This document shows positions 13,854-49,986 of a stretch of 53,637 nt of DNA, one piece after another; positions within the stretch are counted from its first letter, which is position 1; the number at the start of each line of letters is the position of its first letter. Source of the DNA: Clostridia bacterium. Its GTDB lineage: Bacteria; Bacillota; Clostridia; Christensenellales; QALW01. A model generated the notes under the pieces. The model searched no databases and was not told the DNA's origin. It saw only the letters and a program-made list of their open reading frames with translations. A program made the translations under genes and the position numbers. The stretch covers positions 1 through 53,637 of the forward strand of contig JAZSMS010000007.1 of NCBI GenBank assembly GCA_045536015.1, in the 5' to 3' direction.

Positions 13854-13877
13854 CAATTTCACCATCCTAACATTAAT

Positions 13878-21083: not shown

Positions 21084-21113
21084 TAAAAAAAACAAGTCCG
21101 CTTTAGCGGACTT
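21084..21113 (-). terminator. Intrinsic terminator overlapping the stop codon of the phosphatase gene
   Basis: aagtccgc (21094-21101), loop ttta, then gcggactt (21106-21113). The minus-strand T-run corresponds to the plus-strand A8 at 21085-21092. Confidence 0.7.
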
Positions 21114-24621: not shown

Positions 24622-24704
24622 AAAAATAAGCACCCCATTTTAAGTATTTAATTTATTGTACCACTAATGGCACATTTTTGCAACCTTTTTTAAAATATAA
24701 CGGT

Positions 24705-32126: not shown

Positions 32127-32140
32127 ACTTAAGAAATAAC

Positions 32141-32175
32141 AAAAAACAGTCCGATTTTTTCGGACTGTTTTTTAT
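32141..32175. terminator. Bidirectional terminator
   Basis: cagtccga (32147-32154), loop ttttt, then tcggactg (32160-32167), flanked by A6 and T6 runs. Confidence 0.8.
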
Positions 32176-32591
32176 ACCTTTTTATTAATCTGTGTTTTAC
32201 AAACTCGGCAAGTAATTTTAATTTTACCTTTTCCTCTTGGTACGCGGGAGTAATTTTTACAATTTGGGCACTTAACGTAAACAAATTCTTTTGCATCTTT
32301 AATTCGTGTCACATTAAACTTGCACTTAGTTAAAAAGCGGTTCTTTTTTCCTAAATATTTATTGTTTTCCATAACTCGACGGTTAATATTTTTTGAAAAC
32401 GTACGGTAAATTATATAAATAAGCAACGCGGTACTTATAAACGATAAAACCGTTGTTATAATCGGAATATTAAACCAACTTAATATCATTGACAAAACCG
32501 AAAAAGAAACGCCCAAAATAAGCATATCCTTTCCGAATTGATCTACGCCGTAACGTCCGTACATAAACTTTTTAAATTTATCGCCAATCAT
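32172..32591 (-). CDS. Membrane protein with a C-terminal zinc ribbon
   Basis: Two TM segments followed by CPNC-X17-CRVC. Confidence 0.6.
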   Translation of the reverse strand: MIGDKFKKFMYGRYGVDQFGKDMLILGVSFSVLSMILSWFNIPIITTVLSFISTALLIYIIYRTFSKNINRRVMENNKYLGKKNRFLTKCKFNVTRIKDAKEFVYVKCPNCKNYSRVPRGKGKIKITCRVCKTQINKKV

Positions 32592-32674
32592 TTTTATATC
32601 ACCTTTTCTGTTTGTAAATATTATATACTTTAATTTTGAAAAATAAGTGTAATTAAAATAAAAATGTTAAAAAA

Positions 32675-33340
32675 TTATTCTTTAAGCTTTTGAAGTGCCG
32701 CTTTTTCTATTCTGCTTACGTAAGAACGTGAAATATTGAGTTTTTGCGCTACCTCTCTTTGTGTACACGGTGCTTGCCCAAACAGTCCAAACCTGAGTGC
32801 TATAATTTTAATTTCCCTTAAATTAAGCACCTTTTTCATTTTTTTAAGCAACTTTTTATAATTTACACGCTCGTCAACGCTTGTTTCGACGTCTTTGTCG
32901 TCAGATTGTAAAATATCAAGCAAAGAGACCTCATTTCCCTCTTTATCCGTACCAAGCGGCTCGTAAAGAGAAATTTCGGCACGTTGCTTTTTGCTCGACC
33001 GCAAAAACATTAAAATTTCATTTTCTATGCACCTTGAAGCGTACGTTGCAAGATGCGCAGTCTTATCGGGATGATAAGAATTTACCGCCTTTATTAAGCC
33101 AATAGAACCTATTGAAATTAAATCGTCATTATCAACGCCTGATGCAGCATACTTTTTCGCAATATGCGCAACAAGTCTCATATTATGTTCGATAAGCTTG
33201 TTTTTAGCATCAAGGTCACCTTGCAGATTTTTTTGTATAAGCTCTTTTTCTTCTTCCTTTTTTAGCGGTTTAGGAAACGAAATTTTAATATGCCCTATTA
33301 AAAAGGGCATCTCAAGCAGTAAACTAATAAGCCATATCAT
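32675..33340 (-). CDS. sigK: Sporulation sigma factor SigK (pro-sigma-K), uninterrupted
   Basis: Refined start at ATG 33340 (GGAGG 8 nt upstream). Hydrophobic pro-sequence MIWLISLLLEMPFLIGHIKISFPKPL. SigK-like blocks LIEHNMRLVAHIAKKY, LISIGSIGLIKAV, ATYASRCIENEILM, GTDKEGNEVSLLDIL and ISRSYVSRIEK. Confidence 0.85.
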   Translation of the reverse strand: MIWLISLLLEMPFLIGHIKISFPKPLKKEEEKELIQKNLQGDLDAKNKLIEHNMRLVAHIAKKYAASGVDNDDLISIGSIGLIKAVNSYHPDKTAHLATYASRCIENEILMFLRSSKKQRAEISLYEPLGTDKEGNEVSLLDILQSDDKDVETSVDERVNYKKLLKKMKKVLNLREIKIIALRFGLFGQAPCTQREVAQKLNISRSYVSRIEKAALQKLKE

Positions 33341-33401
33341 AATTTTATACCTCCATTTGTATAAAAGATATGACACGGCTTTTTATTTTTTTACAATTTT
33401 T

Positions 33402-33755
33402 TTATTTTTTTGGACCGATAAATGGAAGCACCTTTGCTTTACCCTTAAGCGTATTAACTAATCCATAAATAGTAAAAAACCAAACGTAAATAAAAAACAA
33501 AAAAAACAAAATCAAAGTTACAAGCGAAAAGATGCTTGCAAATGCGCTTAACAAATGCGCAATAAAGATAAATAAAATAAAAACAAACTGACTAAGCGTA
33601 AGCGCAAATCCCTGACGTGCGTGAAACTGGGCAAAAGGCGAATCGCTTGCGGCAAAATATGGTACGACAAACAAAAGGCCAAAATATGCCCAAGCGGAAA
33701 TTCCCTTGTTGTCCCGAATATCTTTTTGTGAAAACTGACTTGTTTTATCCATCAT
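33402..33755 (-). CDS. Small membrane protein (DUF4870-like)
   Basis: 117 aa with 3 TM segments and the motif FAQFHARQGFAL. Confidence 0.55.
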   Translation of the reverse strand: MMDKTSQFSQKDIRDNKGISAWAYFGLLFVVPYFAASDSPFAQFHARQGFALTLSQFVFILFIFIAHLLSAFASIFSLVTLILFFLFFIYVWFFTIYGLVNTLKGKAKVLPFIGPKK

Positions 33756-33935
33756 AACATCTCCAAAGTTATTTTATATATTTTAACACCTATATCGCTT
33801 TTTTGCAATAACAAAAATGTGCAGAAAGTTTAATTAAAAAGCAAAAATCTTATTTTCCTTTTTTCTTTAATTTTTAACTATAAAATAAAAATTTCTTCTT
33901 TGATAGCAAAGCTATGAAATGACATCAAAACACTA

Positions 33936-33960
33936 AGCCACCCGCTTTTAACGGGTGGCT
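33936..33960 (-). terminator. Hairpin downstream of pgcA
   Basis: agccacccg (33936-33944), a 7-nt loop, then cgggtggct (33952-33960). The flanking T-run is weak. Confidence 0.45.
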
Positions 33961-33982
33961 TTAATGTTTTTAGTTGTAGCAA

Positions 33983-35674
33983 CTAATTAAAATAATCTTT
34001 AAGTGAAGCAAGTAGTTGTTGTTCAATTTCTCTTGCCGCATCCTTTGTTTGTGCACTTACGGAAATATATGCCTTAACCTTGGGTTCTGTTCCCGAAGGA
34101 CGAATTACAACCGAGCAGTTATCATTAAGTATAAACTTGATAACGTCTGCCTTAGGTAAGCCGTTAATGCCAAGTGAATAGTCAAGCACTTCTTCAACAT
34201 TGCGCACCTTAAAGTCAGGCGTGCTTTCTCTGAACGATTTCATTATCTGCTGCATTTTAGCAAAGCCTGCTGAGCCTTCAAATTCAAACGAATAAAGGGT
34301 ATTCAAACAATAGCCAAATTCTTCGTAAAGTCCGTTAAGTTTATCAAGCAACGAAATGCCTTTGCTTGCATAAAAAGCAAACATTTCGCAAATCAAAAAC
34401 GCCGCATTAACCGCATCTTTATCGCGAACATACGTGCCCGAGAGATATCCGTAGCTCTCTTCAAAGCCAAGAATATACGAATCTTCTTTGCCCTGCGCCT
34501 CAAGCAAACCAATCTGCTCGCCAATAAACTTAAAGCCGGTTAAAATATCAATAGTTTTAACACCGTATTTTGCAGCAATACGCTTTGCCATATCAATAGT
34601 AACTATAGTTTTAACAACAACGGGATCACTTGGCATCTTACCCATAGCAATTCTGCGCGAGCAAATAAAGTCAAGTAAAAGCATACCAACTTCGTTACCC
34701 GTTAAAAGTACGTGTTCGCCCGAAGCATCCTTAACTGCAATTCCTACGCGGTCACAGTCGGGGTCAGTAGCAAGCAAAAGGTCTGCATTGCACTTTTTTG
34801 CATAGTCAAGACCAAGTTGAAGTGCTTCTCTAATCTCGGGGTTAGGATAAGGGCAGGTTGGGAAATTTCCGTTGGGCTGTTCCTGTTCTTTAACAACGGT
34901 TATATTAGAGAATCCGCTTTCGGTAAGAGCACGCAAAACAGGTTTAAGACCGGAGCCGTTTAAAGGTGTATACACTATTGCAAGGTCTTTATTAACCTTT
35001 TCGTCGCCAAGCATTGACTGCGCCTTAACTTCATTTGTAAAGTCAGTATAAATTTGCTCGGAAATATACTCAATTTTGCCGTTTTTAACGCCTTCTTCAA
35101 AATCAATACGCTTAATATCATTAAATACGTCAAGCTTTTCAATCTCGGCTAAAATTTCCTTTGCAGCCTCAGTAGTTATCTGGCAACCGTCATTACCGTA
35201 AACCTTATAGCCGTTATATTTTGAAGGATTATGCGATGCAGTAACCATAATGCCCGAAGCACATTTAAGCGCGCGTGTAGCATAAGATAAGCACGGTGTA
35301 GGCATCAAGCAGGGATAGATGTAAACCTTTATTCCGTTTGCCGCAAAAACGCCTGAAGCAATACGTGCAAATAGATCTGACTTAATACGCGAATCATAGC
35401 TTACGGCGATACTTCTTTCCTCGGGTGCAAAATGCTTTACAACGTAGTCTGCAAGACCTTGCGAAGCCTTTGCAACTGTGTAAATGTTCATTCTGTTTGT
35501 TCCTGCACCTATAACACCTCGAAGTCCGCCTGTACCAAACTCAAGGTCGCGGTAAAACGCATCTTCTATCTTTTCTTCGTTGCCTTCTATAGCTTTAAGC
35601 TCATTTGCAACATCAATATCTTCGATTGCGTTTTTTAGCCAACGTAAGTATTCTTGTAAAAATTCTTTTTGCAT
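33983..35674 (-). CDS. pgcA: Phosphoglucomutase / phospho-sugar mutase (PgcA-like)
   Basis: Refined start at ATG 35674 (AAGGAGA 6 nt upstream). Active site TASHNPSKYNGYKVY and Mg site TDPDCDR. Confidence 0.85.
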   Translation of the reverse strand: MQKEFLQEYLRWLKNAIEDIDVANELKAIEGNEEKIEDAFYRDLEFGTGGLRGVIGAGTNRMNIYTVAKASQGLADYVVKHFAPEERSIAVSYDSRIKSDLFARIASGVFAANGIKVYIYPCLMPTPCLSYATRALKCASGIMVTASHNPSKYNGYKVYGNDGCQITTEAAKEILAEIEKLDVFNDIKRIDFEEGVKNGKIEYISEQIYTDFTNEVKAQSMLGDEKVNKDLAIVYTPLNGSGLKPVLRALTESGFSNITVVKEQEQPNGNFPTCPYPNPEIREALQLGLDYAKKCNADLLLATDPDCDRVGIAVKDASGEHVLLTGNEVGMLLLDFICSRRIAMGKMPSDPVVVKTIVTIDMAKRIAAKYGVKTIDILTGFKFIGEQIGLLEAQGKEDSYILGFEESYGYLSGTYVRDKDAVNAAFLICEMFAFYASKGISLLDKLNGLYEEFGYCLNTLYSFEFEGSAGFAKMQQIMKSFRESTPDFKVRNVEEVLDYSLGINGLPKADVIKFILNDNCSVVIRPSGTEPKVKAYISVSAQTKDAAREIEQQLLASLKDYFN

Positions 35675-35728
35675 AAAAATTCTCCTTAAACTGTTCTTTA
35701 AACAAAGCATATATGTTTTGTTTAATTA

Positions 35729-35757
35729 ATTATACCAAATTTTAGTAAATTTTTCAA
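35729..35757 (-). promoter_or_regulatory. Promoter of pgcA
   Basis: On the minus strand: TTGAAA (35757-35752), a 17-nt spacer, then TGgTATAAT (extended -10, hexamer 35734-35729). Confidence 0.5.
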
Positions 35758-35764
35758 TAATAAA

Positions 35765-36895
35765 TTAAAGTCCGATAGCTTTAAAAAATTCTGTGGCACT
35801 TTTTGTCTGTTCTCTTTTAGATTTTAACGATTTTATCTTTTTTATAGAATGAGAATTATTTCCTTTAAAAATCTTTTTTAAAATTCTAACTAACCAGAAA
35901 ACAGGCAAAAGCAACGCATATTTTTTTACAGGCGGAAAAAGTTTTTCCATATCTCTTTTTTTAGGAAAAAACAATCGCAAAAGTGTCTGCTTTTCTTTTT
36001 CTTCGTTTGCTTGAGCAAAATTAGAAAAAGAGCCAAAGCTTCCTCCTCGCACTATATAATCTGCCATAGTATCAACGTCTGCATCTTCGTTTTTATCTTC
36101 CGAAAACCAAATACGCGAAAGTGCCTCTACTTTTTTAGAAAAAACTTTAAGTCCGCCTTCACGTAATAATTCTTCTCGTTTTTCTTTATCAAAACTGATA
36201 TTATTTAATAAAAACGTATCTAAAATTGCACGTACTCCGCAGCCGCCAAGTTCAAAGTGCTTGGCAAGATGCGCAATATGGTAAAAATACGTCATTTCAT
36301 CAGTTAAGCGATATTCATTTTCGCTAACCCTAATTGCGCTATCCCACACTTTTAAAAGCACTTTATTAGCATCTTTTGCGCAAGAATCTTCTATTAAGTC
36401 GTAATGAAGCTCTATTTTGATCTTGTTTGCATCAACGAATGAAACATCGTGCGTACTGCGAGAGTTAAATGCAAAACCTGCGCCTTTTGCCACTTGCTCA
36501 GCTTTTTCTATATCCTCTGACCTTACTAAAATATCAATGTCGTCGCTAATGCGCATCCATGCTTCACCATACAAATTTTTTATAACCGCGCCTTTAAGCA
36601 AAATATATGGAATATTTGCTTTTTTTAGTGCATTTGTCATATTTTCTTGCGCTTGTTGCTGCAAAATACTTTTAAAAACAGTCTTTTTCTTTTTTTGCTG
36701 TGCAATACCAAAAAGTTTGTTTTCTTCTATTTCATTTTTTTGCAAAATATCAAAAAGCAAATGTTCAAAGCCATGCCTTTTTAAAAAGGGTAGCAAACTT
36801 TCTATATCGGATGCCGAAAGGCTTTCTTTAAAATTTTCACCAACAGCAAGTTCTTTAATTTGTTTTAAAAGTTGTAATATTTTTTCGTCAATCAT
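35765..36895 (-). CDS. Nucleotidyltransferase-fold protein (resembles the uncharacterised NTP_transf_5-type family)
   Basis: 376 aa. Pol-beta-type signature ILLKGAVIKNLYGEAWMRISDDIDILV (G-[AS]-X10-13-D-x-D), followed by HYDL and a helical C-terminal half. Confidence 0.6.
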   Translation of the reverse strand: MIDEKILQLLKQIKELAVGENFKESLSASDIESLLPFLKRHGFEHLLFDILQKNEIEENKLFGIAQQKKKKTVFKSILQQQAQENMTNALKKANIPYILLKGAVIKNLYGEAWMRISDDIDILVRSEDIEKAEQVAKGAGFAFNSRSTHDVSFVDANKIKIELHYDLIEDSCAKDANKVLLKVWDSAIRVSENEYRLTDEMTYFYHIAHLAKHFELGGCGVRAILDTFLLNNISFDKEKREELLREGGLKVFSKKVEALSRIWFSEDKNEDADVDTMADYIVRGGSFGSFSNFAQANEEKEKQTLLRLFFPKKRDMEKLFPPVKKYALLLPVFWLVRILKKIFKGNNSHSIKKIKSLKSKREQTKSATEFFKAIGL

Positions 36896-36926
36896 TTTCT
36901 TTCCTATAAATAAAAAGCAAGAAGGC

Positions 36927-37664
36927 TTATGCCATTCTTGCTAAAATTATCTGCTCTGCTTCGATAAGTTCTTCGGGCGTGTTAACACCGCGAATTTCGT
37001 CACCGTCAGAAATCGGGAATAATTCTACCTTATATCCGTTTACAAGCATAAGTGCAGGAACGTCAGTAAGATAATATTCATTTTGATTATTATTGTTTTT
37101 AAGTTTAGGGAGAATATTAAAAAGTGCCTCGCTATCAAACACCGCAACACCCGAATTAAGTTCAGAAATTGCATACTGCTCTTTAGTGCAATCTTTTGCT
37201 TCAACTATGCCTGCAAATTTTCCACTTTTATCTCTTGTAATTCTTCCGTAAGATAATAATTCGGGATTAACCGCCGTCATAACCGTACACGCCGCACCCG
37301 ATTCCTCGTGTGCTTTAACCAGTGCCTCCAAAGATTCGCGTCTATAAAGTGGCATATCTCCGTAGGTTACAATAACAGAGCCCTTATATCCTTCAAATTC
37401 TTTAGCGCAGCAAGCAACTGCGTGTCCGGTACCGTTTTGTTCAAGCTGTTCAATATAATTAAACTCTGATCCAAACGCTTCTATTATCTGTTCTTTTTTA
37501 TATCCAACAACGATATACGTGTCCTTTTTTTCTACAAAGCCAACAAGTTCAAGTGCTATATCAAGCAAAGGTCTTCCGCACGCCTTGTGCATTACTTTAG
37601 GACAGTCATGCTCGGCAGAGTGAAGTCTCGTTCCCTTGCCAGCCGCCAACAAAATTGCCCTCAT
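36927..37664 (-). CDS. Sugar-1-phosphate uridylyltransferase, equivalent to the GlmU N-terminal (pyrophosphorylase) domain only
   Basis: Collinear with GlmU residues about 1-230: ILLAAGKGTRL, CPKVMHK, EQNGTGHAV, VTYGDMPL, YGRI, ELNSGVAVF, NNNQNEYYLTDV. It is 245 aa long, so the left-handed beta-helix acetyltransferase half is absent. Confidence 0.8.
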   Translation of the reverse strand: MRAILLAAGKGTRLHSAEHDCPKVMHKACGRPLLDIALELVGFVEKKDTYIVVGYKKEQIIEAFGSEFNYIEQLEQNGTGHAVACCAKEFEGYKGSVIVTYGDMPLYRRESLEALVKAHEESGAACTVMTAVNPELLSYGRITRDKSGKFAGIVEAKDCTKEQYAISELNSGVAVFDSEALFNILPKLKNNNNQNEYYLTDVPALMLVNGYKVELFPISDGDEIRGVNTPEELIEAEQIILARMA

Positions 37665-37677
37665 TTTTCCTCCACAA

Positions 37678-38808
37678 TTATAATAAATTTAATTCTTTAC
37701 GTATCTTTAAAGTTATTCTTTCTATCTCGCCTGCTTTTTCTTCCATATCGGCAATAAGTTTTAACTGTGTTCTTGCTCTATCAAGATTTTGTTTTGCACG
37801 ATGAATAATATAATAAGTGTCACCGTTAATATAATCGGTTAAAAATCTTATTCCGTCTTCAATAGTAATTATTCTGGATGCCCAAGGAAGAAGTTCTATT
37901 TCTTCTTTAGTCATAATCTCGCCACAGCTTTCTAAAAAGCCGCGCGTATATTTTTCATACAATTCTAAGTTACAAGATACCCTTGATAAATCACGTTCGT
38001 CGTCACACGCAGTATTGGTACCTATGCGAAGACTGTCACCATAATCGTACAATAACGATGACGGCATAACGGTATCTAGATCGATTACCGCAACCGGCAT
38101 ATTAGTATCTTTATCAAACAAAATATTGTTTAAATTTGTATCATTATGCGTAATACGCGTTGGAATGCGGCCTTCCTCAAGTGCCGATGAAATCATCTTC
38201 ATAATTCCGGTATGGTTGCGAATAAATTCTATCTCCGGCATAACTTCATGCACACGCTCTGCATGGTCTTCTTTTATTGCCCTTTCTAAATCAAGATAAC
38301 GCGAGTAAGTATTATGAAAATTGGGTATTGTTATATTTATCTTTTTTGGATCAATATCACTAACGTCACAGATAAATTTACCAAAACTTTTACCGCAAAG
38401 ATAAAACACCTCTGGGTTTTCGGGAATATCCATCGTATAAACGTGCGAAAAATACGTCATCATTCGCCAACAACCCGTATCTGTTTTAAGATAATCTTCG
38501 CCCGACAACGTTTTGACAATCATCGGAATACTGCCCAATTTATCTCTGTGCCCTTCAAGTAAAAACTTTTCGTGTAAATGCTCTGTTATAAGCACGAAAT
38601 TTTGCATAAGAGCATCCATATCTCTGAAAACGTTTGTATTAACTCTTTGAAGTGTATATCTGTGTCGCTGACCGTCTTCAGTATACGTTTCTACCAAAAA
38701 TGTACGGTTAATATAGCCATTGCCAATATTACGTATGATTTTAACTTTTCCTTTAATTTTAAACTGTCTTGCGATAAGTTCTTTATCGCTTACAAAAACT
38801 TCGGGCAT
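37678..38808 (-). CDS. nahK: N-acetylhexosamine 1-kinase (NahK-like anomeric sugar kinase, APH fold)
   Basis: Blocks recalled from Bifidobacterium NahK: RITHNDTNLNNILFD, VIDLDTVMPSS, YDYGDSLRIG, RFLTDYINGDTYY, NLDRARTQLKLIADMEEKA. SD GGGAGA lies 6 nt before the ATG. Confidence 0.8.
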   Translation of the reverse strand: MPEVFVSDKELIARQFKIKGKVKIIRNIGNGYINRTFLVETYTEDGQRHRYTLQRVNTNVFRDMDALMQNFVLITEHLHEKFLLEGHRDKLGSIPMIVKTLSGEDYLKTDTGCWRMMTYFSHVYTMDIPENPEVFYLCGKSFGKFICDVSDIDPKKINITIPNFHNTYSRYLDLERAIKEDHAERVHEVMPEIEFIRNHTGIMKMISSALEEGRIPTRITHNDTNLNNILFDKDTNMPVAVIDLDTVMPSSLLYDYGDSLRIGTNTACDDERDLSRVSCNLELYEKYTRGFLESCGEIMTKEEIELLPWASRIITIEDGIRFLTDYINGDTYYIIHRAKQNLDRARTQLKLIADMEEKAGEIERITLKIRKELNLL

Positions 38809-38895
38809 TATTATCTCCCTTACGTTTATTAGCTTGAAGACATTTTAATATTTTTTTAACAATTTAAAGTGCAACAAAACACAACAAGCGTTTAT

Positions 38896-38924
38896 ATGAT
38901 AGCATATTTTGTATTGCTCGTCAA
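38896..38924 (-). promoter_or_regulatory. Promoter of the nahK / uridylyltransferase / NTase operon
   Basis: On the minus strand: TTGACG (38924-38919), a 17-nt spacer, then TGcTATCAT (hexamer 38901-38896). The leader is about 85 nt. Confidence 0.5.
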
Positions 38925-39040
38925 TATAAATATCAAAAAACTACTGTATTTACGGCTTTTTTACATTTTTTACACTTTAATACAAAAAAGGTTTCCTTTT
39001 GTTAAGAATGACTTCCTATTAACAAAATATTCATTTTTTC

Positions 39041-39074
39041 CAAAAATAAACAAACCAACCATTTGGTTGGTTTG
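39041..39074 (-). terminator. Intrinsic terminator immediately after the small peptide gene
   Basis: 10-bp stem caaaccaacc (39051-39060) / ggttggtttg (39065-39074) with loop attt. A minus-strand U-rich tract follows (plus-strand ccaaaaataaa, 39041-39050). The hairpin begins 15 nt after the stop codon. Confidence 0.75.
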
Positions 39075-39088
39075 ATAACTTTTTATTA

Positions 39089-39199
39089 TTAATCTATTTG
39101 TACATAAGTAACTTCTGTCTCAGCACCAGAGCTATAATTTAAAACATCCGAAGCTTCTATCTTAATAACTTTAACCTCAGGCTTAACGTAACCTTTCAT
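39089..39199 (-). CDS. 36-aa candidate RiPP precursor peptide MKGYVKPEVKVIKIEASDVLNYSSGAETEVTYVQID
   Basis: Too short for the ORF track. ATG 39199-39197, TAA 39091-39089, SD GAGG (39210-39207) 7 nt upstream. It has its own consensus promoter and terminator. A YxxPxV motif occupies residues 4-9. It lies divergent to and adjacent to a PqqD gene. Confidence 0.7.
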   Translation of the reverse strand: MKGYVKPEVKVIKIEASDVLNYSSGAETEVTYVQID

Positions 39200-39255
39200 A
39201 ACAAAACCTCACTAACATTTTAATATGTTCGAGTACAAATTCATAAGTTATTTTT

Positions 39256-39284
39256 ATTATAACCTAACACCTATTAGTAGTCAA
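39256..39284 (-). promoter_or_regulatory. Consensus sigma-A promoter of the small peptide gene
   Basis: On the minus strand: TTGACT (39284-39279), a 17-nt spacer, then TATAAT (39261-39256). Confidence 0.65.
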
Positions 39285-39330
39285 GCATTTTTTATATTTT
39301 ATTAACACTTTATTTATATTTAAAACTTTG

Positions 39331-39359
39331 TTGTGTTTTTTTTTAATGTGGTATATAAT
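39331..39359 (+). promoter_or_regulatory. Promoter of the pqqD-like / peptidase genes
   Basis: TTGTGT (39331-39336), a 17-nt spacer, then TATAAT (39354-39359). Alternatively TGgTATATA read as an extended -10. Confidence 0.4.
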
Positions 39360-39389
39360 ATAGTCATAAAAGTTGTTGGAGGAAATACA

Positions 39390-39662
39390 ATGAAACTTAA
39401 AAAAGGTTTTGTTCTTCGTAAGGTTGCTGGAATGACGGTTGTTACTGCTACAGATTCTACCTGTGATTTTGATGGTATGATAACTTTAAACGAATCAGCA
39501 GAGTTAATGTGGAACAGACTTATTCTTGGTGCCACGATCTCTGACCTTGCCGACATCTTACTTAGCGAATATGACGTTGATAAACAAACTGCTATCAATG
39601 ATGCATCTGATTTTGTAAAACTTCTTAAAGAAAACGGAATTTTAGATGAAAGTACCAATTAA
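39390..39662 (+). CDS. PqqD-family protein (RiPP recognition element / peptide chaperone)
   Basis: Refined start at ATG 39390 (GGAGGA 39378-39383). The 90-aa sequence ITLNESAELMWNRLILGATISDLADILLSEYDVDKQTAINDASDFVKLLKENGIL matches the PqqD winged-helix pattern. Confidence 0.8.
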   Translation: MKLKKGFVLRKVAGMTVVTATDSTCDFDGMITLNESAELMWNRLILGATISDLADILLSEYDVDKQTAINDASDFVKLLKENGILDESTN

Positions 39663-40065
39663 TGAGCTTATCCCCTTAATTGAAGAATGTGCCGCAAATA
39701 ACGGCGCGTATTTTTCGCCTACCGGTATTAGTATGCTTCCCACTATAAAAAATGGCGATAAGGTTTTTTTGATAAAGCGCAACTTAAAAAAGAACGATAT
39801 AGTTTTTTACCGAAAAAACGGAGCAGCTACTATGCACCGCGCAATAAAGATAAATAGCGACTTTTTTATAGCACGCGGGGATAATCAATTTTGGACCGAA
39901 AACGTTAAATTTGAAGATATTATTGCCGTTGTTGACCATTATTTTCATAACGGAAAACGTATTAACTGCGATAGTTTTATATTTAAGTTTAATACTTTTT
40001 TTCTTCCCGTCACACGCGTTTTAAGACGCATTTTGCGTAAGTTTGGACTTTTAAATATTGCATAA
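39646..40065 (+). CDS. Soluble S24/S26-fold peptidase, SipW/ER-type (Ser-His) signature
   Basis: Motifs GISMLPTIKNGDKV (Ser box), ATMHRAIKI (His where bacterial SPase I has Lys) and ARGDNQ (GDN box). There is no N-terminal TM segment. Overlaps the PqqD gene by 17 nt. Confidence 0.65.
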   Translation: MKVPINELIPLIEECAANNGAYFSPTGISMLPTIKNGDKVFLIKRNLKKNDIVFYRKNGAATMHRAIKINSDFFIARGDNQFWTENVKFEDIIAVVDHYFHNGKRINCDSFIFKFNTFFLPVTRVLRRILRKFGLLNIA

Positions 40066-40086
40066 AATTAAATAAAATGCTATAAT
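40058..40086 (+). promoter_or_regulatory. Internal promoter in front of rfbA
   Basis: TTGCAT (40058-40063), a 17-nt spacer, then TGcTATAAT (hexamer 40081-40086). Confidence 0.5.
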
Positions 40087-40114
40087 TTACTTACCTTATT
40101 TTTTGGAGGTTTAT

Positions 40115-41008
40115 ATGATAAGAAAAAAAACAAAAGGTATAATTCTTGCAGGCGGCAAGGGCACTCGCCTTTATCCTATGACAAAAGTTGTTTCTAAACA
40201 GCTTTTATCTGTTTACGATAAGCCACTTATCTACTATCCCCTCTCTACACTTTTCCTTGCAGGAATTGACGAAATTTTAATAATTTCAACGCCTGAAGAT
40301 ACACCAAATTATCAGCGCCTTTTAGGTGACGGTTCTTCGCTTGGTGTCCGTTTTGAATATGCCGTTCAGGATAAGCCCCGAGGTCTTGCCGATGCATTTA
40401 TCATTGGCGAAAAGTTTATTGGTGAAGATAACGTTTGTCTTGTTTTAGGCGACAACGTATTTTATGGTCAAAACTTCTCGCAATTATTATTCAAGGCAAA
40501 GGCAAACGAAAGCGGTGCAACTGTTTTTGGCTACCCTGTTTCTGACCCACGCGCTTTTGGCGTTGTTGAATTTGACGAAAACCTTAAGGTTGTATCCTTA
40601 GAAGAAAAGCCTGCCGAACCAAAGAGCCCCTACGCAGTTCCCGGACTTTATTTTTATGATAACAACGTTGTTGAAATTGCTAAAAACGTTCAGCCTTCTC
40701 CTCGAGGTGAAATTGAAATTACAGCAATTAACAACGAGTATCTTCGCAGGGGCGAGCTTAACGTTGTTTTAATGGGCAGAGGTATGGCTTGGCTTGATAC
40801 CGGTACACCACAAGGTATGCTCACTGCTGCAACGTACGTTCAGTCAATTCAGTCACTTCAGGGCTTTTATATTTCTTGTATAGAAGAAATTGCATGGCGT
40901 CGCGGCTTTATCTCTACCGAGCAATTAATGGCACTTGGCAAGGAGTTAGAATCTACCGAATATGGAAAATACATAATCAACCTTGCTATAAAGGATAGAA
41001 AATTTTGA
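40115..41008 (+). CDS. rfbA: Glucose-1-phosphate thymidylyltransferase (RmlA/RfbA)
   Basis: Refined start at ATG 40115 (GGAGG 40105-40109). Motifs [54 protein letters not shown]. No rmlB, rmlC or rmlD in the window. Confidence 0.9.
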
Positions 41009-41697
41009 TTAAAACCTATAAAATTGCCGACTTAAAATTAAATATTGACGCATCTTCAATTACCGCACGCAATGGAAAAAAATACGAGGTTGAATTTGAC
41101 CCGAGCGCTATCGAATTAAAATTTTCACCCGAAGCGGCAAAGCGTTTTATTGACGCACACCCTACTGCAGAAATTGAAGATTGGGACTATTTTTTACACG
41201 GTGCAAAATTTTCTTCACTAATGTTAGAAAACGACGGCTTTGTCTTTCACTCATCCGCCATTGCACTTGACGGTCAGGCATTTTTATTCTCTGCTAATTC
41301 AGGTGTAGGCAAATCAACGCACACAAAGCTTTGGAAAAAGGTTTTTGATGACGTTGTTTATATCAATGACGATAAGCCCGCAATTCGCCTTAAAAACGGT
41401 TTATTTTACGTCTACGGCACCCCATGGAGCGGCAAAAGCACGTTAAATTCAAACATTTGCGTTCCTCTTAAGGCAATTTGCTTTATTGAGCGTGCAAAAA
41501 TTAATTCTATCCGCAAGTTAACTCCATTTGAAGCGCTTCCCCGTTTGCTTGAACAGACGATGCGCAAAGCAGGCGAAACAAAAACTGCACGTCTTTTAGA
41601 GTTGTTAGACGTTTTATTAACAACAACACCAATATATTTATTATCATGTCTTCCCAATGAAGACGCGGCAAAACTTGCACACGATACAATGATTTAA
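41005..41697 (+). CDS. HprK-related P-loop kinase-like protein
   Basis: [28 protein letters not shown] follows the pattern of HPr kinase C-terminal / HprK-related kinases (hHAsav...G.a.lf.G.SG.GKST). TTG start at 41005 overlaps the rfbA TGA stop (41006-41008). Confidence 0.6.
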
Positions 41698-41727
41698 AAC
41701 CCGAGGTTTAACTTTTTTATTACTAAT

Positions 41728-41758
41728 TGAATATCATATAATAAATATGGTGATAATC
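41728..41758 (+). promoter_or_regulatory. Forespore (sigma-F/G)-type promoter-like element upstream of csfB
   Basis: TGAATA (41728-41733), a 15-nt spacer, then GGTGATAATC (41749-41758). Compared with the remembered sigma-F consensus WGCATA-N15-GGnRAYAMTW. Confidence 0.35.
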
Positions 41759-41775
41759 AAACTGAGGTGATTTAT

Positions 41776-41940
41776 TTGGACGTTTGCTGCATCTGTCAAA
41801 AGGAAAAGCGGGATAATCTTTACATTTTAGGAAAATTAATTTGCGATGATTGTGAGTGGCGCATTTTAAAAGCAAAGGCACATGAGAAATCCTATACACA
41901 CTATTCAAACGGTTTAAAAAAACTTATATGCCAAAAATAA
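41776..41940 (+). CDS. csfB: Anti-sigma-G factor Gin (CsfB)
   Basis: Not on the ORF track. TTG start at 41776, 6 nt after GAGGTGA. The 54-aa product is MDVCCICQKEKRDNLYILGKLICDDCEWRILKAKAHEKSYTHYSNGLKKLICQK. It aligns with B. subtilis CsfB: CVICDQEK...LY.KFICLDCE...Y.FY...LK. Confidence 0.8.
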   Translation: MDVCCICQKEKRDNLYILGKLICDDCEWRILKAKAHEKSYTHYSNGLKKLICQK

Positions 41941-41980
41941 AAACGGTTCAGCTTTTTTGCTGAACCGTTTATTATTTTTT
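41941..41980. terminator. Bidirectional terminator between csfB and the ABC operon
   Basis: cggttcagc (41944-41952), loop tttttt, then gctgaaccg (41959-41967), flanked by A- and T-runs. Confidence 0.8.
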
Positions 41981-43025
41981 AACCTACCATACCTGATCTT
42001 TCGATACTCTGAACAAAGAATCTCTGGCCAAAGCAATATAAAATTACGATAGGTGCAACGTGCATAACCGTACAAGCAGACTGGTAAAGCGAGTTTAAAA
42101 CTGTGTCGCCCTGTATCTGCAATACGCTTGTTACATATGCCGAACCGGCTTCACCAATCTTAGTCGCCATAACCTTTGCCGTGGGGTTTAGCATAGCAAT
42201 ATAGTAAGTATCGTTATACTGCCAAACTATTGCAAAAAGTAAAACCGTAACAAGCATCGGAAGTGCACTTGGAAGCATAACCTGAACAAACGTTCTGAAA
42301 GGACCTGCACCATCGATATATGCAGCTTCTTCAAGTTCTTTGGGCTGGTTAATAAAGTACTGACGAAGCAGGAATATAAACAAGCCGTTACGATACATAG
42401 TAGCTGTTGCCGAAAGCAAACCAATTGCAGTCCAACCGCGAGTTAAATCAATGTTAGGTATTCTATAAAGCTCTTCACCAAATGTAAACATATACATGGG
42501 GTTAAAAGCCTTATATCTGAAAAACATAGCGTAGGTAAGCATCTGAATCGGTACCATAAGTGTAAAGATACACATAAGGAACATAAAGTTGTTACCCTTA
42601 AATTTAAAGCGAGCAAGACCATAAGCTACTACGGTACAAGAACACATCTGTAAAAGGCCAAACCCTATCGAAGTTAAAAACGAATTAAGATAAAGACTTG
42701 GAATATCAGCAAATTTCCACATTGCAACGTATGCGTTAAAATTAATTGTTTTAGGAATAAGTATTACAGTTGGATCATACACGTCTGCACGCGTCATAAA
42801 CGAGGTTATAATCGTTATGAGCATAGGATATATGATAAGATACGCAATACCAATAAGTAAAACTGCTCTTAAAGCACCCCAAAGAATTGAAAACGTACGT
42901 TTTCCAAGTACTACTTTTTTAAACTTTTGCCACTTTGTAAGTGTAGGCGGTACATAGTGATCAACTTCTTCTGCACCAACTTCATTGAACTTTTTAAGTT
43001 CTTCTTTAATAGCCATACTATGCAC
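41979..43025 (-). CDS. Carbohydrate ABC transporter permease (MalG-like) with a 50-aa N-terminal extension
   Basis: Six TM segments and the EAA loop EEAAYIDGAGPFRTFVQVMLP. Confidence 0.85.
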   Translation of the reverse strand: MHSMAIKEELKKFNEVGAEEVDHYVPPTLTKWQKFKKVVLGKRTFSILWGALRAVLLIGIAYLIIYPMLITIITSFMTRADVYDPTVILIPKTINFNAYVAMWKFADIPSLYLNSFLTSIGFGLLQMCSCTVVAYGLARFKFKGNNFMFLMCIFTLMVPIQMLTYAMFFRYKAFNPMYMFTFGEELYRIPNIDLTRGWTAIGLLSATATMYRNGLFIFLLRQYFINQPKELEEAAYIDGAGPFRTFVQVMLPSALPMLVTVLLFAIVWQYNDTYYIAMLNPTAKVMATKIGEAGSAYVTSVLQIQGDTVLNSLYQSACTVMHVAPIVILYCFGQRFFVQSIERSGMVG

Positions 43026-43031
43026 CTCCCT

Positions 43032-43916
43032 TTAATTCTCGTAGTAAACAAGCTTGGACATAATCCATGCAACAATACTGATTACTATTGCAGTGATTAA
43101 GAAATACGTCCAGCTCATAGCCATAATTTCTACCTGGTCAACTTCTTTAACCTTATACAAATAATCAAGCATTGGGTTGTTCATACTACAAAGAACTTCA
43201 ATTAAAGTATAAATGGTGTTAACCAAAATCATAGGGCTTATCATCGGGAATGTTATCTTCCAGAAGTTTTCCCAAGCGGTAGCACCTTCAACCTTTGAAG
43301 ATTCAAATATCGAAGGCGATATGGTTTGCAGACCTGCAAGGAATATAAGTATCGGAACGCCCGAAGCATTTAATATAACCGTTAATTGATCAAACGCTCC
43401 GCTTATTATATTACCAAACGTGCCGCCAAGCGACGCTTTAATATTACCTGCAACGTTCATAGATTGTGCGCCAAGCGCCGCCATTTGTGATTGGTCAACA
43501 CCGACATCTTTTCCTAAAAGCGTAGCAGCAACACCTGCTGAAGTAATAACAGGCATAAACAAGATAGCTCTTGCCAACGTTCTTCCATGGAAATTCTGGT
43601 TTAAAACGTTTGCCATAAGGAAGCTAAATATCAATATACAGGGTACCTGCACTATCATATTTAACCCCGAAGCCTCTAACCTATCAATAAAGTGAGGTTG
43701 AATTACGTTTTCATATGCTTTAAATCCATAAGATTCGATATTGGTAATTCCGGTAACACCGTCAAAAACCTCTACGTTAAATGAAAGTACCAATGCAGTA
43801 TAAATAGGTGATAAAACAAAGAATATAAAACCAAGAAGGAACGGGAGAATGAAAAGCCATCCGTTTAATGAACGTCTTGTCATAAGCCCTAATTTATAAG
43901 TCCTAGGCTTTTTCAT
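43032..43916 (-). CDS. Carbohydrate ABC transporter permease (MalF-like)
   Basis: EAA-like loop ESSKVEGATAWENFWKITFP in a polytopic protein. Confidence 0.85.
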   Translation of the reverse strand: MKKPRTYKLGLMTRRSLNGWLFILPFLLGFIFFVLSPIYTALVLSFNVEVFDGVTGITNIESYGFKAYENVIQPHFIDRLEASGLNMIVQVPCILIFSFLMANVLNQNFHGRTLARAILFMPVITSAGVAATLLGKDVGVDQSQMAALGAQSMNVAGNIKASLGGTFGNIISGAFDQLTVILNASGVPILIFLAGLQTISPSIFESSKVEGATAWENFWKITFPMISPMILVNTIYTLIEVLCSMNNPMLDYLYKVKEVDQVEIMAMSWTYFLITAIVISIVAWIMSKLVYYEN

Positions 43917-46675
43917 TATTTAACTCCCCCCTTTGCAAAATCTTCTGCCTTAACTACTGTACCATCTTCGGCAATGTAGTCAGTTTCGCCATAGTTTACG
44001 TAAACTACAACGCCATTACTATAAGTAACCTTGTTAACGTTTTCACTAAGAATTTCGTGTGAAGCAATAAGTGCTGACGAAGTATCCTTAAGTAAATCGT
44101 TATATTTCTTATACATTTCAATAGCGTCATCAAGCCACGAAACGTAACTAAGCGAATACATACCTTCAAAAACAAGGTCCTTAACCTTATCGTTATTTTC
44201 ATAACACCAACGATAATATAAACCGGAACCTGCTTCAATAGCCTGAAGATATACAAGTGTAGGATCGCCATTTAAGTTAATAGGCTCACCCGAATACTCA
44301 ATACTTCCGTGAATTACCATCTGATAGAACGGTACCGAAGCGTCGGCAAGGTTAAAGTTACTGCTTGTATTGCTAATTTCAAAAATAGAATCTACGTAAG
44401 GAAGAATATATGAATTAACACCCTTGCCCATTACGTTAAGTTCTTCAGAATAAAGTTTTGCAACTTCAGCATATACCTTTGAAACTTCATCTCTATCCCA
44501 GAAGTCATTTACCTTATAGTTGCCCGAAAGATGCTGTGACATACTTCCAAGACTTACGCCCTTAATGCCATATTCAACAAGGTCTTCTAATACCTTATTT
44601 GCGTTTCCGCTTGCATTTTCAGCTTTTCTTACGTTATAAATAGCCGAAGGCGAAACAATTGTTGCAGTATTGCTCTTTCCGTATGCAGTAGAGCTTGCAA
44701 ACATATTGGCCGCAACAGCCTGCTCATAAGCTTTTTTACTGATTGGGTCGTACTGATAATGATAAGCAATATCTCTTGTTACCATTCTTGATGCATCGTT
44801 TAAGGAGCTATATCCATCAAAGGCTGTATCTTTATACACATACATAAGCTCGGTTTCGAAATAAAGATTTACACCAAGTTCATCAGCTAAAGCTTGTAAT
44901 GATGCCAAGCCCTTTTTGCCGCCAAGTTCTTTAAGAACTTTTACCTTGTTGTATACAGAGTTTCTAAGACCGTTATTTGCCCAAGCTTTGTAGTTAACAG
45001 AAATATTTTTAACTCCTGCTTCACTAAGCTTTTTAATAAGCTCACCACACTGCTCAAACGTAGTTATTGCCTTCATCTCGGTATAACCAACACCAAGGAA
45101 AGCAGTATCGTGGTTATATGCACCAACAAGTTCAATATTAAAGGGAATGTCAGTAAACTTCTTTTGTGTAAGTGCGCCTTTATCAATAAGATAATCTCTG
45201 TAATATTCTGCCATACCGCTATAATTAGCCTTTTCGTTAGCTAAAACGGTATATGAAATCGATATATCGGCAGAGTTCATCTCATTTTGATAAATAAGTG
45301 CTGCTTTTGAAGCATTTGAAAACTGAAGTTCATCATACTCATAAAGTCTGAACTGCGAGTAGCATCTGTTTCTGTCAATAATATTTTTATTTTTGCCAGC
45401 TATGTCAGCAATAATCGTTGCGTTAGCATTACCACTTTCAATTATAGCAAACAATGCTGAACTTGCCTTTTTAATACCAAATACAGGCAACGAAGCCGTT
45501 TGATTCTTAAAGGGCTGACGAAGTCTTGCAAGACCGTCATCAAGGCCGTAAAGCTGAAGCTTAACAGCACCGTTAATGTTTGTTTTACCATTATTGAAGT
45601 TAACAATAGCGCCCGAACCATCAGGAACAAACATGTAACCTTGCTCTTGTCTTGACGCCGAACCAAAATACTGAAGAAGCGTTATATCATTAATCGCAAA
45701 TTCAGATTTGTCAAAAGAAATTTCATCATTAGGAATTGTTGCAGTAAGACCGTTTTCAGTTAAAACGTAGTCAAGCGGGATCCAGAAAGTTTTTGCATCT
45801 TCTTTTACAACACCAAAAGTCTCGTCAATTTCATTACGCTCTTCTAAGGTCATACCTACTTCTACTAAAGCATTCTGAAGCTGTGTCATAACACGTCCGT
45901 TATTCCACTTTGTAGGTTCACCTATAAGATAAAGCGTTTGACCTCCTTCAATATATTCCTCTATTTCAGGAGCAATTTGTAAAAGCTCTTCACGTCTGTC
46001 TTCAGGATAAGAATTCCAAACGGCAGGCGAAAGTTTTGAATAAACGTTACCACCGCTTATGTATTTAGAAACGGCAAGATAACCTGCATCCTTAAGCTTT
46101 TGAATATAAGATTCTGCTACCTCACTTGTCATACAGGTAGGAATAATATAGTCAGGTTTAATTAAACCAAGAATGTAGATAACTCTTAAATGGCCTTCGT
46201 GTTCAACAATATGGAACTGTTTAACACCATTTTTAAGAGACTCTTCCGTCTGGTTTAAAATGCAGTCCATATACGTTTCAAGAGTTTTTCTACTACCCTC
46301 TGTCTTATTAAAATAATACAGTGAAATCTGACTGCTCATTTCGCTTTTAATACCGGCATCGCGTTCAGATTTAGAGGGGTTTGAATACCATACGTCACCG
46401 GTACTCTTTTCAACTAAAGCAAACTCAAGAATCTCTTCGTTGAAATAAAACTCGTAATTCTTGTTTTCTTCAACAAGCTTAAATGTAGTATTATTTTCTG
46501 CAATAACTTCTTCTCTGATATGCACCTTTTCTGAAGAGAATTTATATTCAGGATCAGTATTGGTTGGTGTGATATAACCCGTATCCTCTTGAGGGGCACA
46601 TCCTGTAAACGAAAGCACAGGAATTGCTAATACAAAAACGAGTAATAAGGAAATAATTATTTTTGACTTTTTCAC
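43916..46675 (-). CDS. 919-aa lipoprotein of unknown function
   Basis: Signal plus lipobox MKKSKIIISLLLVFVLAIPVLSFTGC. No motif I can assign. The TAATG junction overlaps the downstream permease start by 1 nt. Confidence 0.7.
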   Translation of the reverse strand: MKKSKIIISLLLVFVLAIPVLSFTGCAPQEDTGYITPTNTDPEYKFSSEKVHIREEVIAENNTTFKLVEENKNYEFYFNEEILEFALVEKSTGDVWYSNPSKSERDAGIKSEMSSQISLYYFNKTEGSRKTLETYMDCILNQTEESLKNGVKQFHIVEHEGHLRVIYILGLIKPDYIIPTCMTSEVAESYIQKLKDAGYLAVSKYISGGNVYSKLSPAVWNSYPEDRREELLQIAPEIEEYIEGGQTLYLIGEPTKWNNGRVMTQLQNALVEVGMTLEERNEIDETFGVVKEDAKTFWIPLDYVLTENGLTATIPNDEISFDKSEFAINDITLLQYFGSASRQEQGYMFVPDGSGAIVNFNNGKTNINGAVKLQLYGLDDGLARLRQPFKNQTASLPVFGIKKASSALFAIIESGNANATIIADIAGKNKNIIDRNRCYSQFRLYEYDELQFSNASKAALIYQNEMNSADISISYTVLANEKANYSGMAEYYRDYLIDKGALTQKKFTDIPFNIELVGAYNHDTAFLGVGYTEMKAITTFEQCGELIKKLSEAGVKNISVNYKAWANNGLRNSVYNKVKVLKELGGKKGLASLQALADELGVNLYFETELMYVYKDTAFDGYSSLNDASRMVTRDIAYHYQYDPISKKAYEQAVAANMFASSTAYGKSNTATIVSPSAIYNVRKAENASGNANKVLEDLVEYGIKGVSLGSMSQHLSGNYKVNDFWDRDEVSKVYAEVAKLYSEELNVMGKGVNSYILPYVDSIFEISNTSSNFNLADASVPFYQMVIHGSIEYSGEPINLNGDPTLVYLQAIEAGSGLYYRWCYENNDKVKDLVFEGMYSLSYVSWLDDAIEMYKKYNDLLKDTSSALIASHEILSENVNKVTYSNGVVVYVNYGETDYIAEDGTVVKAEDFAKGGVK

Positions 46676-46681
46676 TTCTGA

Positions 46682-49125: not shown

Positions 49126-49138
49126 ATACTCACCCTCC

Positions 49139-49984: not shown

Positions 49985-49986
49985 AA

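Follow-up and report, generated by a model that had tools for sequence, protein, structure and literature searches.

A putative divergent, exporter-less clostridial member of the linear polyphosphorylated peptide pathways and its neighbouring sugar-activation genes

Linear Polyphosphorylated Peptides (LPPs), peptides that are synthesised on ribosomes and then modified after translation (RiPPs), were described in Paenibacillus alginolyticus DSM5050 by Popov et al. (Nat Commun, May 2026; PMC13381572), and the family has thus been defined only in 2026, mainly from Bacilli. The lpp genes code for a precursor (lppA), an HprK-like kinase (lppK), a RiPP recognition element (RRE; lppB), a SipW-like signal peptidase I (lppS), an MsbA-like exporter (lppD) and an NTP transferase (lppN) (PMC13381572). 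LppK adds up to four phosphates to Ser3 of the core, while LppS (catalytic residues Ser29, His68 and Asp93), which was placed among the SipW homologues, cuts the leader only when LppB presents the precursor, with the N-terminal helix of LppS docking onto the RRE-leader sheet (PMC13381572). Deletion of lppN caused no detectable change, and a rare substrate provided by a partner outside the core cluster was proposed by the authors (PMC13381572). LPP clusters are often found inside capsular polysaccharide loci, with no chemical link demonstrated, and one third of the Bacilli LPP clusters adjoin lasso peptide genes (PMC13381572). In the pseudomycoidin pathway, a nucleotidyltransferase-type enzyme adds hexoses to phospho-Ser (PMC8498205). 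The locus compared with these systems here is located on contig JAZSMS010000007.1 of a Clostridia bacterium, in a window of 53,637 nt (the whole stretch of DNA that was analysed by means of a list of open reading frames (ORFs), Pfam and NCBIfam profile scans and a promoter and terminator search), and codes for a 36-aa precursor peptide, a PqqD-family RRE, a SipW-like peptidase, an HprK-like protein and several sugar-activation enzymes.

Homology, conserved catalytic and binding residues, gene linkage and the absence of a cyclase are established for this locus, for which the best explanation is an LPP-type RiPP pathway of a divergent clostridial kind that lacks an exporter. With a sugar step included by inference, this explanation is given a probability of roughly 0.7, and membership of the LPP type together with its mechanism, taken alone, is highly probable. 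For the family, others have shown that LppK phosphorylates core Ser3 and that LppS cleaves in dependence on the RRE (PMC13381572), and both steps would extend to this locus by analogy. The genes are arranged in two divergent arms, the precursor gene being on the strand opposite to the PqqD, peptidase, rfbA and kinase genes. An earlier note on this DNA, drawn up from its letters alone, had presented this gene map with its families, promoters, precursor terminator and two gene overlaps, all of which were recovered in the profile scans, in the sequence itself and, for the kinase-like protein and the peptidase, in structure models. Its claim that cyclase, B2 protease, radical SAM, YcaO, LanM and exporter genes are lacking also held, as Asn_synthase, Transglut_core3, radical SAM, YcaO, LanM and ABC exporter domains were not found in the Pfam scans of essentially all window ORFs of at least 100 aa. 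The linear, cyclase-less pathway which it proposed, with a PqqD-bound YxxP leader, HprK-like phosphorylation and SipW-like cleavage, has meanwhile been shown for the LPP family, with which the parts encoded in the window agree by analogy, and its statement that no characterised RiPP class has this enzyme set was superseded by the LPP publication of May 2026 (PMC13381572).

Precursor, recognition element, peptidase and kinase

Relatives were collected in a kinase-anchored survey with one genome per GTDB species, in which at least 599 loci were obtained and 80 kept; individual related loci are labelled with L and a number. The lppA-like precursor gene (39089..39199, minus strand) codes for 36 residues made up of the leader MKGYVKPEVKVIKIEASDVL and the core NYSSGAETEVTYVQID, where residues 1-20 form the predicted leader and the predicted core of 16 aa has a net charge of -3 and Asp as its C-terminal residue. 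The gene has a ribosome binding site (RBS) and a sigma-70-like promoter (TTGACT-17-TATAAT, 39256..39284, minus strand, 11/12 matches), and an intrinsic terminator is located directly 3' of it (39051..39074, minus strand; a 10-bp stem, 5 pairs of which are GC, and then a run of T). The leader contains the motif YVKPEV (Tyr4-x-x-Pro7-x-Val9) and is matched by a leader hidden Markov model (HMM) with an E-value of 1e-9, and precursors of this family were detected in 22 loci with E-values of 1e-13 to 1e-4 among the ~48,000 small ORFs searched. The RBS, the occurrence of the leader family in 22 loci and the recording of the 36-aa precursor as a called gene product show that this is not a chance ORF. 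The family has the leader consensus MKK-Y-x-K-P-E-[LIVM]-x-[VI]-x-x-F-x-x-E-D-[IV]-[IM]-x-x-S and a variable, acidic C-terminal part. As is usual for functional RiPP precursors, the four closest loci have a conserved leader and differ in their cores.

Two features of the published precursor motif, YxxPxVLxHQxIxFETxxS (Px9Fx[T/A]) with a variable C-terminus (PMC13381572), are kept in the window leader, namely YxxPxV and the distal Ser, while the HQ, Px9F and FET elements are absent. The Tyr and Ser are spaced by 19 residues in the window precursor versus 18 in LppA, and when the cut is set two residues before the Ser, as in LppA, a Ser stands at predicted core position 3 in 14 of the 22 clostridial peptides, the window's included. 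By this analogy Ser23 (core Ser3) is the predicted phosphorylation site, cleavage may take place around the Leu20/Asn21 bond, and an LppA-like cut two residues before the Ser would therefore yield NYS(P)SGAETEVTYVQID as the predicted product. The conserved Ser had at first been considered as the P1 residue of a signal peptidase (-3,-1) site, a still conceivable idea that was set aside for the LppA analogy, where the Ser is the phosphosite. No copy of the leader was found within any larger protein. Precursor genes are variously placed in the related loci: three different ones surround a single kinase gene in L072 (2284-3810), and in L073 and L082 the precursor gene adjoins the kinase gene and both PqqD and peptidase genes are absent. 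In L029 (14542-14679) and L074 (492-647) the precursor genes are located 4.5 and 9.5 kb from the cassette, respectively, so distal precursors do occur.

The plus arm begins with a gene for an lppB-like discrete RRE of the PqqD family (39390..39662, plus strand, 90 aa; Pfam PqqD 4e-14), which also matches the lasso PqqD models below threshold and overlaps the peptidase gene by 17 nt. In the crystal structure of LppB, the YxxP motif is held by Asn33, Tyr60, Asp70 and Phe74, with the Asp binding the Tyr and the Asn placed at the Pro kink (PMC13381572). These residues align with Asn34, Tyr61, Asp71 and Phe75 of the window protein; in an alignment of 58 sequences, made up of 56 homologues together with LppB and the window protein, the Asn34 position is Asn in 56 and the Asp71 position is Asp in 44. 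RREs of the paeninodin type have Gly at the position of window Asn34 and prefer WxxP leaders.

The lppS-like gene (39646..40065, plus strand) codes for a soluble homologue of SipW/archaeal-type signal peptidase I of 139 aa, which is a weak match at the sequence level, with the archaeal-type signal peptidase I model TIGR02228 at 7e-7 and S24 at 1e-4, the latter below its cutoff. Sequence-only searches of the PDB were of no help with the peptidase, the kinase-like protein or the NTP_transf_5 protein discussed below, so a comparison of folds was needed. An S24/S26 fold is confirmed in the predicted structure of the peptidase (predicted local distance difference test (pLDDT) 81), the best PDB matches of which are LexA, SpsB and SipA, and the model has an N-terminal helix and a C-terminal amphipathic helix, with no N-terminal membrane anchor. 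The 51 peptidase homologues show no variation at Ser29, His64-Arg65 and Gly78-Asp79 and 92% conservation at Glu85, and Ser29, His64 and Glu85 of the window peptidase align with the catalytic Ser29, His68 and Asp93 of LppS. The identity with P. alginolyticus LppS is 29% (E 4e-7) over the catalytic core, and 31% with Ruminococcus SpI of the dataset of PMC13381572. The clostridial peptidases of the LPP study lie outside the sequence similarity network cluster 1 which was analysed there, and their precursors are listed as not determined (PMC13381572). The C-termini of the peptidase (39976-40065) and of the NTP_transf_5 protein (35765-35950) form a similar hydrophobic/amphipathic helix with a conserved Pro and Arg, FFLPVTRVLRRILRK and LLLPVFWLVRILKKIF, a likeness also seen in L001 / C. 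formicaceticum. This common helix could be a docking or membrane-association motif.

The lppK-like gene (41005..41697, plus strand, TTG start) codes for a P-loop protein of 230 aa with an HprK/PEPCK fold, belonging to the ScmC family. It matches TIGR04249 (ScmC, 9e-6) and TIGR04352 (HprK-related kinase A, 4e-3), both below threshold (for TIGR04249, 25 bits versus a model cutoff of 125 bits), as well as AAA_29, and the precomputed Pfam family PF27840 'ScmC' is recorded in its homologues; the Hpr_kinase_C model gave no Pfam match at E <=0.01. The 'HprK kinase' group of the LPP study is likewise made up of TIGR04249, TIGR04352 and TIGR04355 matches, and not of Hpr_kinase_C matches (PMC13381572). 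Of the profile matches proposed as checks in the earlier note, PqqD (4e-14) and NTP_transf_5 (3e-38) were thus obtained, S24 stayed below its cutoff, TIGR04352 was sub-threshold and Hpr_kinase_C failed to match. The structure model (pLDDT 93) has HprK/P (1kkm) as its best Foldseek match (E 5e-6), with PEPCK also matched, and the P-loop GxGKSTH and the NDDKP motif are invariant among 84 kinase homologues, such that the protein is a predicted peptide Ser kinase as judged by its modelled fold. Directly 3' of the kinase-like gene lies a gene for the sigma-G inhibitor Gin (CsfB; 41767-41940, plus strand), followed by a bidirectional terminator (41941-41970), and this position of the Gin gene is common to the window, L003, L086, L087 and L088.

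Between the peptidase and kinase genes lies rfbA/rmlA (40115..41008, plus strand; ORF from 40103), coding for a glucose-1-phosphate thymidylyltransferase with 460 bits against TIGR01207, an equivalog model with a cutoff of 361. Its signals, read from the sequence, are TGcTATAAT upstream, a GGAGG RBS and the ATG at 40115, and its stop codon overlaps the TTG start of the kinase gene (TTGA). This translational coupling is kept across a clade, and 11 related loci, with kinase identities as low as 46% and at least three different flanking contexts, retain the order PqqD-(S24)-RfbA-ScmC. Among the matches listed for the 126 Bacilli clusters of PMC13381572, RmlA occurs within 12 kb of only five, and no NahK- or GlmU-type domain (APH, TIGR01173) is found around any.

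Related loci and sugar-activation genes

The kinase family comprises more than 3,200 protein clusters, and the 80 loci kept are almost all from Clostridia and mostly from metagenome-assembled genomes (Clostridia, Oscillospiraceae, Acutalibacteraceae, Faecousia, Lachnospiraceae), with Herbivorax sp. and Paenibacillus doosanensis in addition. A word-indexed homologue search with the peptidase returned only six relatives, so family statistics were taken from the kinase-anchored loci, and iterated HMM searches did little to extend the PqqD, peptidase or NTP_transf_5 matches. In Clostridium formicaceticum, around the homologue of the window kinase, the genes for a small peptide, the P-loop protein, PqqD, an S24-like peptidase, an ABC exporter and NTP_transf_5 form a six-part cassette with the same order as lppA-K-B-S-D-N. 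Among the 39 related loci with at least 6 kb on both flanks, PqqD is encoded in 25, the peptidase in 26, an MsbA-type ABC exporter in 19 and NTP_transf_5 in 11; the earlier note had proposed such a look at co-occurrence. No Asn-synthase-type cyclase, B2 protease or radical SAM protein is encoded among the conserved neighbours of the 80 loci, the sole Asn_synthase near a homologue being a full AsnB with a GATase domain beside an orphan kinase. Orphan loci with neither PqqD nor peptidase include L028, L039, L051, L061, L069, L077, L078 and L084. A small lipoprotein gene is located 3' of the orphan kinase in five of these eight (L039, L061, L069, L077 and L084), and the copy scanned, that of L069, is a DUF4430 protein. 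Minimal PqqD-RfbA-kinase loci lacking the peptidase and NTP_transf_5 are seen in L005 and L007, and also in L085.

The minus arm contains, under a promoter of its own (38924-38896, minus strand), an operon of three genes. The first codes for a NahK-type N-acetylhexosamine 1-kinase of the APH family (37678..38808, minus strand), which matches the solved N-acetylhexosamine 1-kinase structures (PDB 4ocu/4wh1, E 2e-82) over residues 12-367, its NahK specificity being assigned by similarity. It is followed by a gene for a sugar-1-phosphate uridylyltransferase (36927..37664, minus strand, 245 aa) which consists of the GlmU N-domain only: the NCBIfam GlmU models are matched at 9e-71, with a score below cutoff and only profile positions 2-240 of 447 covered, and the C-terminal acetyltransferase (LbH) domain is lacking, so that this is not a bifunctional GlmU. 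The last gene (35765..36895, minus strand) codes for a nucleotidyltransferase-fold protein (Pfam NTP_transf_5, 3e-38) with the invariant motif KG...DxD...E.H. A PgcA-type phosphoglucomutase with four domains (Pfam PGM_PMM I-IV) is encoded next (33983..35710, minus strand) under a separate promoter (35757-35729, 11/12 matches, with TG) and with its own terminator (33961-33935); translation probably begins at the second ATG (35674), as suggested by the 563-aa orthologues in L003 and L087.

By position, the NTP_transf_5 protein is the counterpart of LppN, yet on sequence grounds it is assigned to a subfamily of capsule/UDP-HexNAc operons. Its closest homologues (35-38% identity, 218-241 bits) are stand-alone proteins, versus 24-32% identity and 78-157 bits for NTP_transf_5 of the canonical cassettes, and all four stand-alone contexts sampled are sugar-nucleotide or capsule operons with no RiPP genes. 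In these the NTP_transf_5 gene lies at the 3' end of the operon (L090, 5934-11161; L093, 3705-9158; L091, 4748-11173; L092, 4458-9161), which codes for a UDP-sugar dehydrogenase and variously for a GHMP kinase, NTP_transferase, epimerase/dehydratase and UDP-GlcNAc 2-epimerase, as a recurring module. In two of the four, genes for a GHMP sugar kinase and an NTP_transferase come first, a counterpart to NahK/GlmU-N. A gene for a PglF/CapD-like dehydratase is located between GlmU-N and NTP_transf_5 in L003 and L087, NTP_transf_5 is followed by PglF-, DegT- and PglC-like genes in L054, and in L074 cpsABCD-type genes and a NahK homologue are interspersed among the LPP genes. NTP_transf_5 thus recurs beside UDP-GlcNAc-modifying enzymes in L003/L087, L054 and L090-L093, so NTP_transf_5 proteins generally seem to be tied to UDP-HexNAc-derived sugars. 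Capsule hallmark genes (Wzz, BY-kinase, CpsB, initiating sugar transferase, CapD/PglF-like dehydratase) are found within 7 kb of 14 of the 56 cassette loci versus none of the 23 orphan-kinase loci.

Proposed pathway and its rivals

In the pathway proposed, the 36-aa precursor would be made from its own promoter and its YVKPEV leader motif bound by the PqqD-family element, while the HprK-fold P-loop protein would phosphorylate Ser23 (core Ser3), possibly several times. The PqqD element would then present the phosphoprecursor to the SipW-like Ser/His/acid peptidase for a cut around Leu20/Asn21, releasing the short acidic phosphopeptide given above. NahK and GlmU-N may make UDP-HexNAc for the NTP_transf_5 protein, and PgcA and RfbA may make dTDP-glucose next to the kinase, with a phospho-linked sugar as in pseudomycoidin as the putative end result. 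Direct decoration of the peptide with sugar by these neighbouring genes is tentative and on balance doubtful. The NTP_transf_5 protein is nearer to capsule-operon homologues than to those of the LppN type, and peptide decoration is therefore plausible but unproven; the earlier note's suggestion that it decorates the peptide with locally made nucleoside diphosphate sugars has accordingly kept the rank of an inference, as the lppN deletion was also silent. A stronger version, in which the sugar genes reveal a missing part of LPP chemistry, with NTP_transf_5 using a donor derived from UDP-HexNAc (further processed by the PglF/CapD-like dehydratase in L003 and L087) and dTDP-glucose feeding a kinase-coupled step, is unlikely. 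If true, the need for a donor from the sugar genes would explain the silent LppN in the published heterologous system, and gut Clostridia would have, as mature products, small phosphoglycopeptides of acidic character that are linked with capsule or biofilm biology.

Several observations weigh against placing the locus in the LPP type with a sugar step. The window codes for no MsbA-type exporter, its PqqD protein is only 19% identical to LppB, and the identity of its peptidase to LppS is low (29%). The leader departs from the published Px9Fx[T/A], with P-x6-F/I and no FET, and the cores of the clostridial family are acidic and 9-32 aa long versus the basic cores of 45 and 37 aa in the two published LppA peptides compared (P. 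alginolyticus and RBP03169.1). A detectable precursor of the window's family is located near only 10 of the 41 complete cassettes, and iterated HMM searches did not find precursors in the remaining 31. The closest sister loci lack the peptidase and NTP_transf_5, no recognisable precursor ORF was found upstream of PqqD in at least two of them (L005 and L007), and roughly a third of the kinase homologues stand as orphans among housekeeping genes. The window NTP_transf_5 is closest to stand-alone homologues, and LppN itself had no detectable activity in the published system (PMC13381572).

Some of these points recur in the most serious rival, which is quite possible, if short of an even chance. 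Here the plus arm and the peptide are a minimal LPP core, while the minus arm serves to make a polysaccharide or surface glycan and its NTP_transf_5 has a glycan or a sugar nucleotide as substrate instead of the peptide, with RfbA as the RmlA of the cell; the two modules would be adjacent not because they have a substrate in common but because LPP clusters tend to lie in capsule loci, as a result of common regulation or common biology such as biofilm. The minus arm is under its own promoter, the sister loci retain PqqD-RfbA-kinase with no minus arm, and the 35-38% identical NTP_transf_5 homologues end operons of sugar kinase, NTP_transferase, epimerase/dehydratase and UDP-sugar dehydrogenase genes, with no RRE, peptidase or kinase in four of four contexts, while identity to cassette NTP_transf_5 is only 24-32%. 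It also accords with this separation that the lppN deletion left the LPP product unchanged and that embedding in capsule loci has no demonstrated chemical link (PMC13381572). However, rfbA is located inside the RiPP operon, and its translational coupling with the kinase gene persists throughout a clade in which the flanks vary; NTP_transf_5 belongs to the cassette operon in many lineages, among them some that lack neighbouring capsule genes, such as C. formicaceticum; an enrichment of capsule genes is seen only for loci with a cassette, and the pseudomycoidin nucleotidyltransferase provides a precedent for action on a phosphopeptide (PMC8498205).

That the locus is a decaying or repurposed LPP remnant, perhaps with no secreted product, in which the kinase (with RfbA) acts on another, possibly housekeeping or sporulation-linked, substrate, is improbable. 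The lack of an exporter in the window, the reduction of L005-L010 and L089 to PqqD-RfbA-kinase, with no precursor found in L005 or L007, the orphan third of the kinase homologues and the Gin gene 3' of the kinase gene in the window, L003, L086, L087 and L088 are in keeping with decay, but the window parts are all intact ORFs with conserved catalytic residues, the precursor gene has a strong promoter, RBS and terminator, and the leader is conserved with a varied core among the four closest loci. A split conventional lasso cluster, with its cyclase and B2 protease elsewhere, is hardly credible and was rejected: although the YxxP leader, PqqD, HprK-like protein and NTP_transf_5 all occur in paeninodin-type lasso clusters and one third of Bacilli LPP clusters lie beside lasso genes (PMC13381572), no Asn_synthase-type cyclase or Transglut_core3 protein is encoded in the window or among the conserved neighbours of the 80 loci. 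The single Asn_synthase found is the full AsnB with GATase beside an orphan, the paeninodin RREs have Gly at the Asn34 position and prefer WxxP leaders, and the predicted core lacks the N-terminal Gly/Ala-to-Asp/Glu ring pattern. A lasso cyclase/B2 pair in orthologous loci, which the earlier note had named as evidence for such a cluster, was looked for, and none was found.

Membership of the LPP type thus being the preferred explanation, the family gains from this locus and its relatives a distinct type of leader that comes with short, acidic cores, and the window can be assigned by sequence to a divergent clostridial branch with such cores. Related cassettes are widespread in Clostridia, and many of them come from metagenome-assembled genomes of the gut and rumen. 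Particular sugar-nucleotide enzymes, namely NahK/GlmU-N, a PglF-like dehydratase and RmlA, are linked with the NTP_transf_5 and kinase genes, such that UDP-HexNAc derivatives and dTDP-glucose are donor candidates for the LppN step, and the compact minimal systems of peptide, RRE, RmlA and kinase are suited to the study of the kinase.

Flanking genes and comparison with known systems

Just upstream of the locus lies a gene for a sigma-70-family factor (32675-33376, minus strand). A capsule-regulator triad (21112-23196, minus strand), coding for a CpsB/CapC phosphatase, a BY-kinase-like ATPase (AAA_31) and a Wzz chain-length protein, is located ~12.6 kb away next to a phosphoglucose isomerase gene (23215-24633, minus strand), and there are therefore polysaccharide genes near this locus too. 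A 563-aa ORF (12219-13910, minus strand) combines an XRE-type HTH_3 domain (residues 29-80, 8e-13) with a complete four-domain phosphoglucomutase/phosphomannomutase, an unusual fusion provided that the upstream TTG start is real. The long downstream operon (41979-53560, minus strand) is conserved, with synteny in L003, L085 and L086, and appears to be unrelated to the peptide locus; it codes for ABC sugar-uptake permeases, a DUF5696 protein (919 aa), Yip1, a protein with NHL repeats and a solute-binding protein of 878 aa. No regulatory RNA was matched in 32000-43000 by Rfam at E <=0.1, and an anti-phage defence system was considered and rejected, as five proteins had no PADLOC match.

The SynChlorMet ScmC family (TIGR04249/PF27840) is the best curated sequence-model match of the window kinase-like protein, and the SynChlorMet cassette also has a PqqD homologue; the score is, however, far below cutoff and no radical SAM/SPASM partners are encoded in the window. 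The L090-L093 operons contain the closest NTP_transf_5 relatives and follow the same logic of sugar kinase, nucleotidyltransferase, (dehydratase) and NTP_transf_5, but lack a precursor, RRE, peptidase or HprK-like gene. Bacillus subtilis SipW shares the Ser/His-type S26 catalytic core and a GDN-like box with the window peptidase, which differs in having no N-terminal membrane anchor and, by analogy with LppS, in its presumed RRE dependence. In common with the paeninodin and pseudomycoidin pathways are the HprK-like kinase, which in those acts on the linear precursor, leader recognition by PqqD and an NTP_transf_5-type nucleotidyltransferase; in contrast, the window codes for no cyclase or B2 protease, and their phosphosite is a C-terminal Ser, whereas the window precursor ends in Asp and has its conserved Ser near the leader/core junction.

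The LPP systems share with the window the YxxP leader and a Ser at core position 3, predicted in the window, a discrete PqqD RRE in which the Asn/Asp pair is present, a peptidase of the SipW type that is soluble and has a Ser/His/acid triad, an HprK-like kinase, putative in the window, that is matched by TIGR04249/TIGR04352, an NTP_transf_5 gene, the absence of a cyclase and an association with polysaccharide genes. They differ in that the window belongs to Clostridia and the published systems to Bacilli, in the missing MsbA-type exporter, in the two divergent arms with the precursor on the opposite strand, in the insertion of rfbA and its coupling to the kinase gene, in the placement of an NTP_transf_5 of another subfamily in a NahK/GlmU-N operon, and in a leader with no Px9Fx[T/A] or FET and a core that is acidic and 16 aa long, not basic and 45 aa. 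The mechanism proposed for the locus is thus no longer without precedent, and what is different when set beside the LPP systems is the lack of an exporter, the rfbA-kinase coupling and the association of NTP_transf_5 with NahK and GlmU-N.

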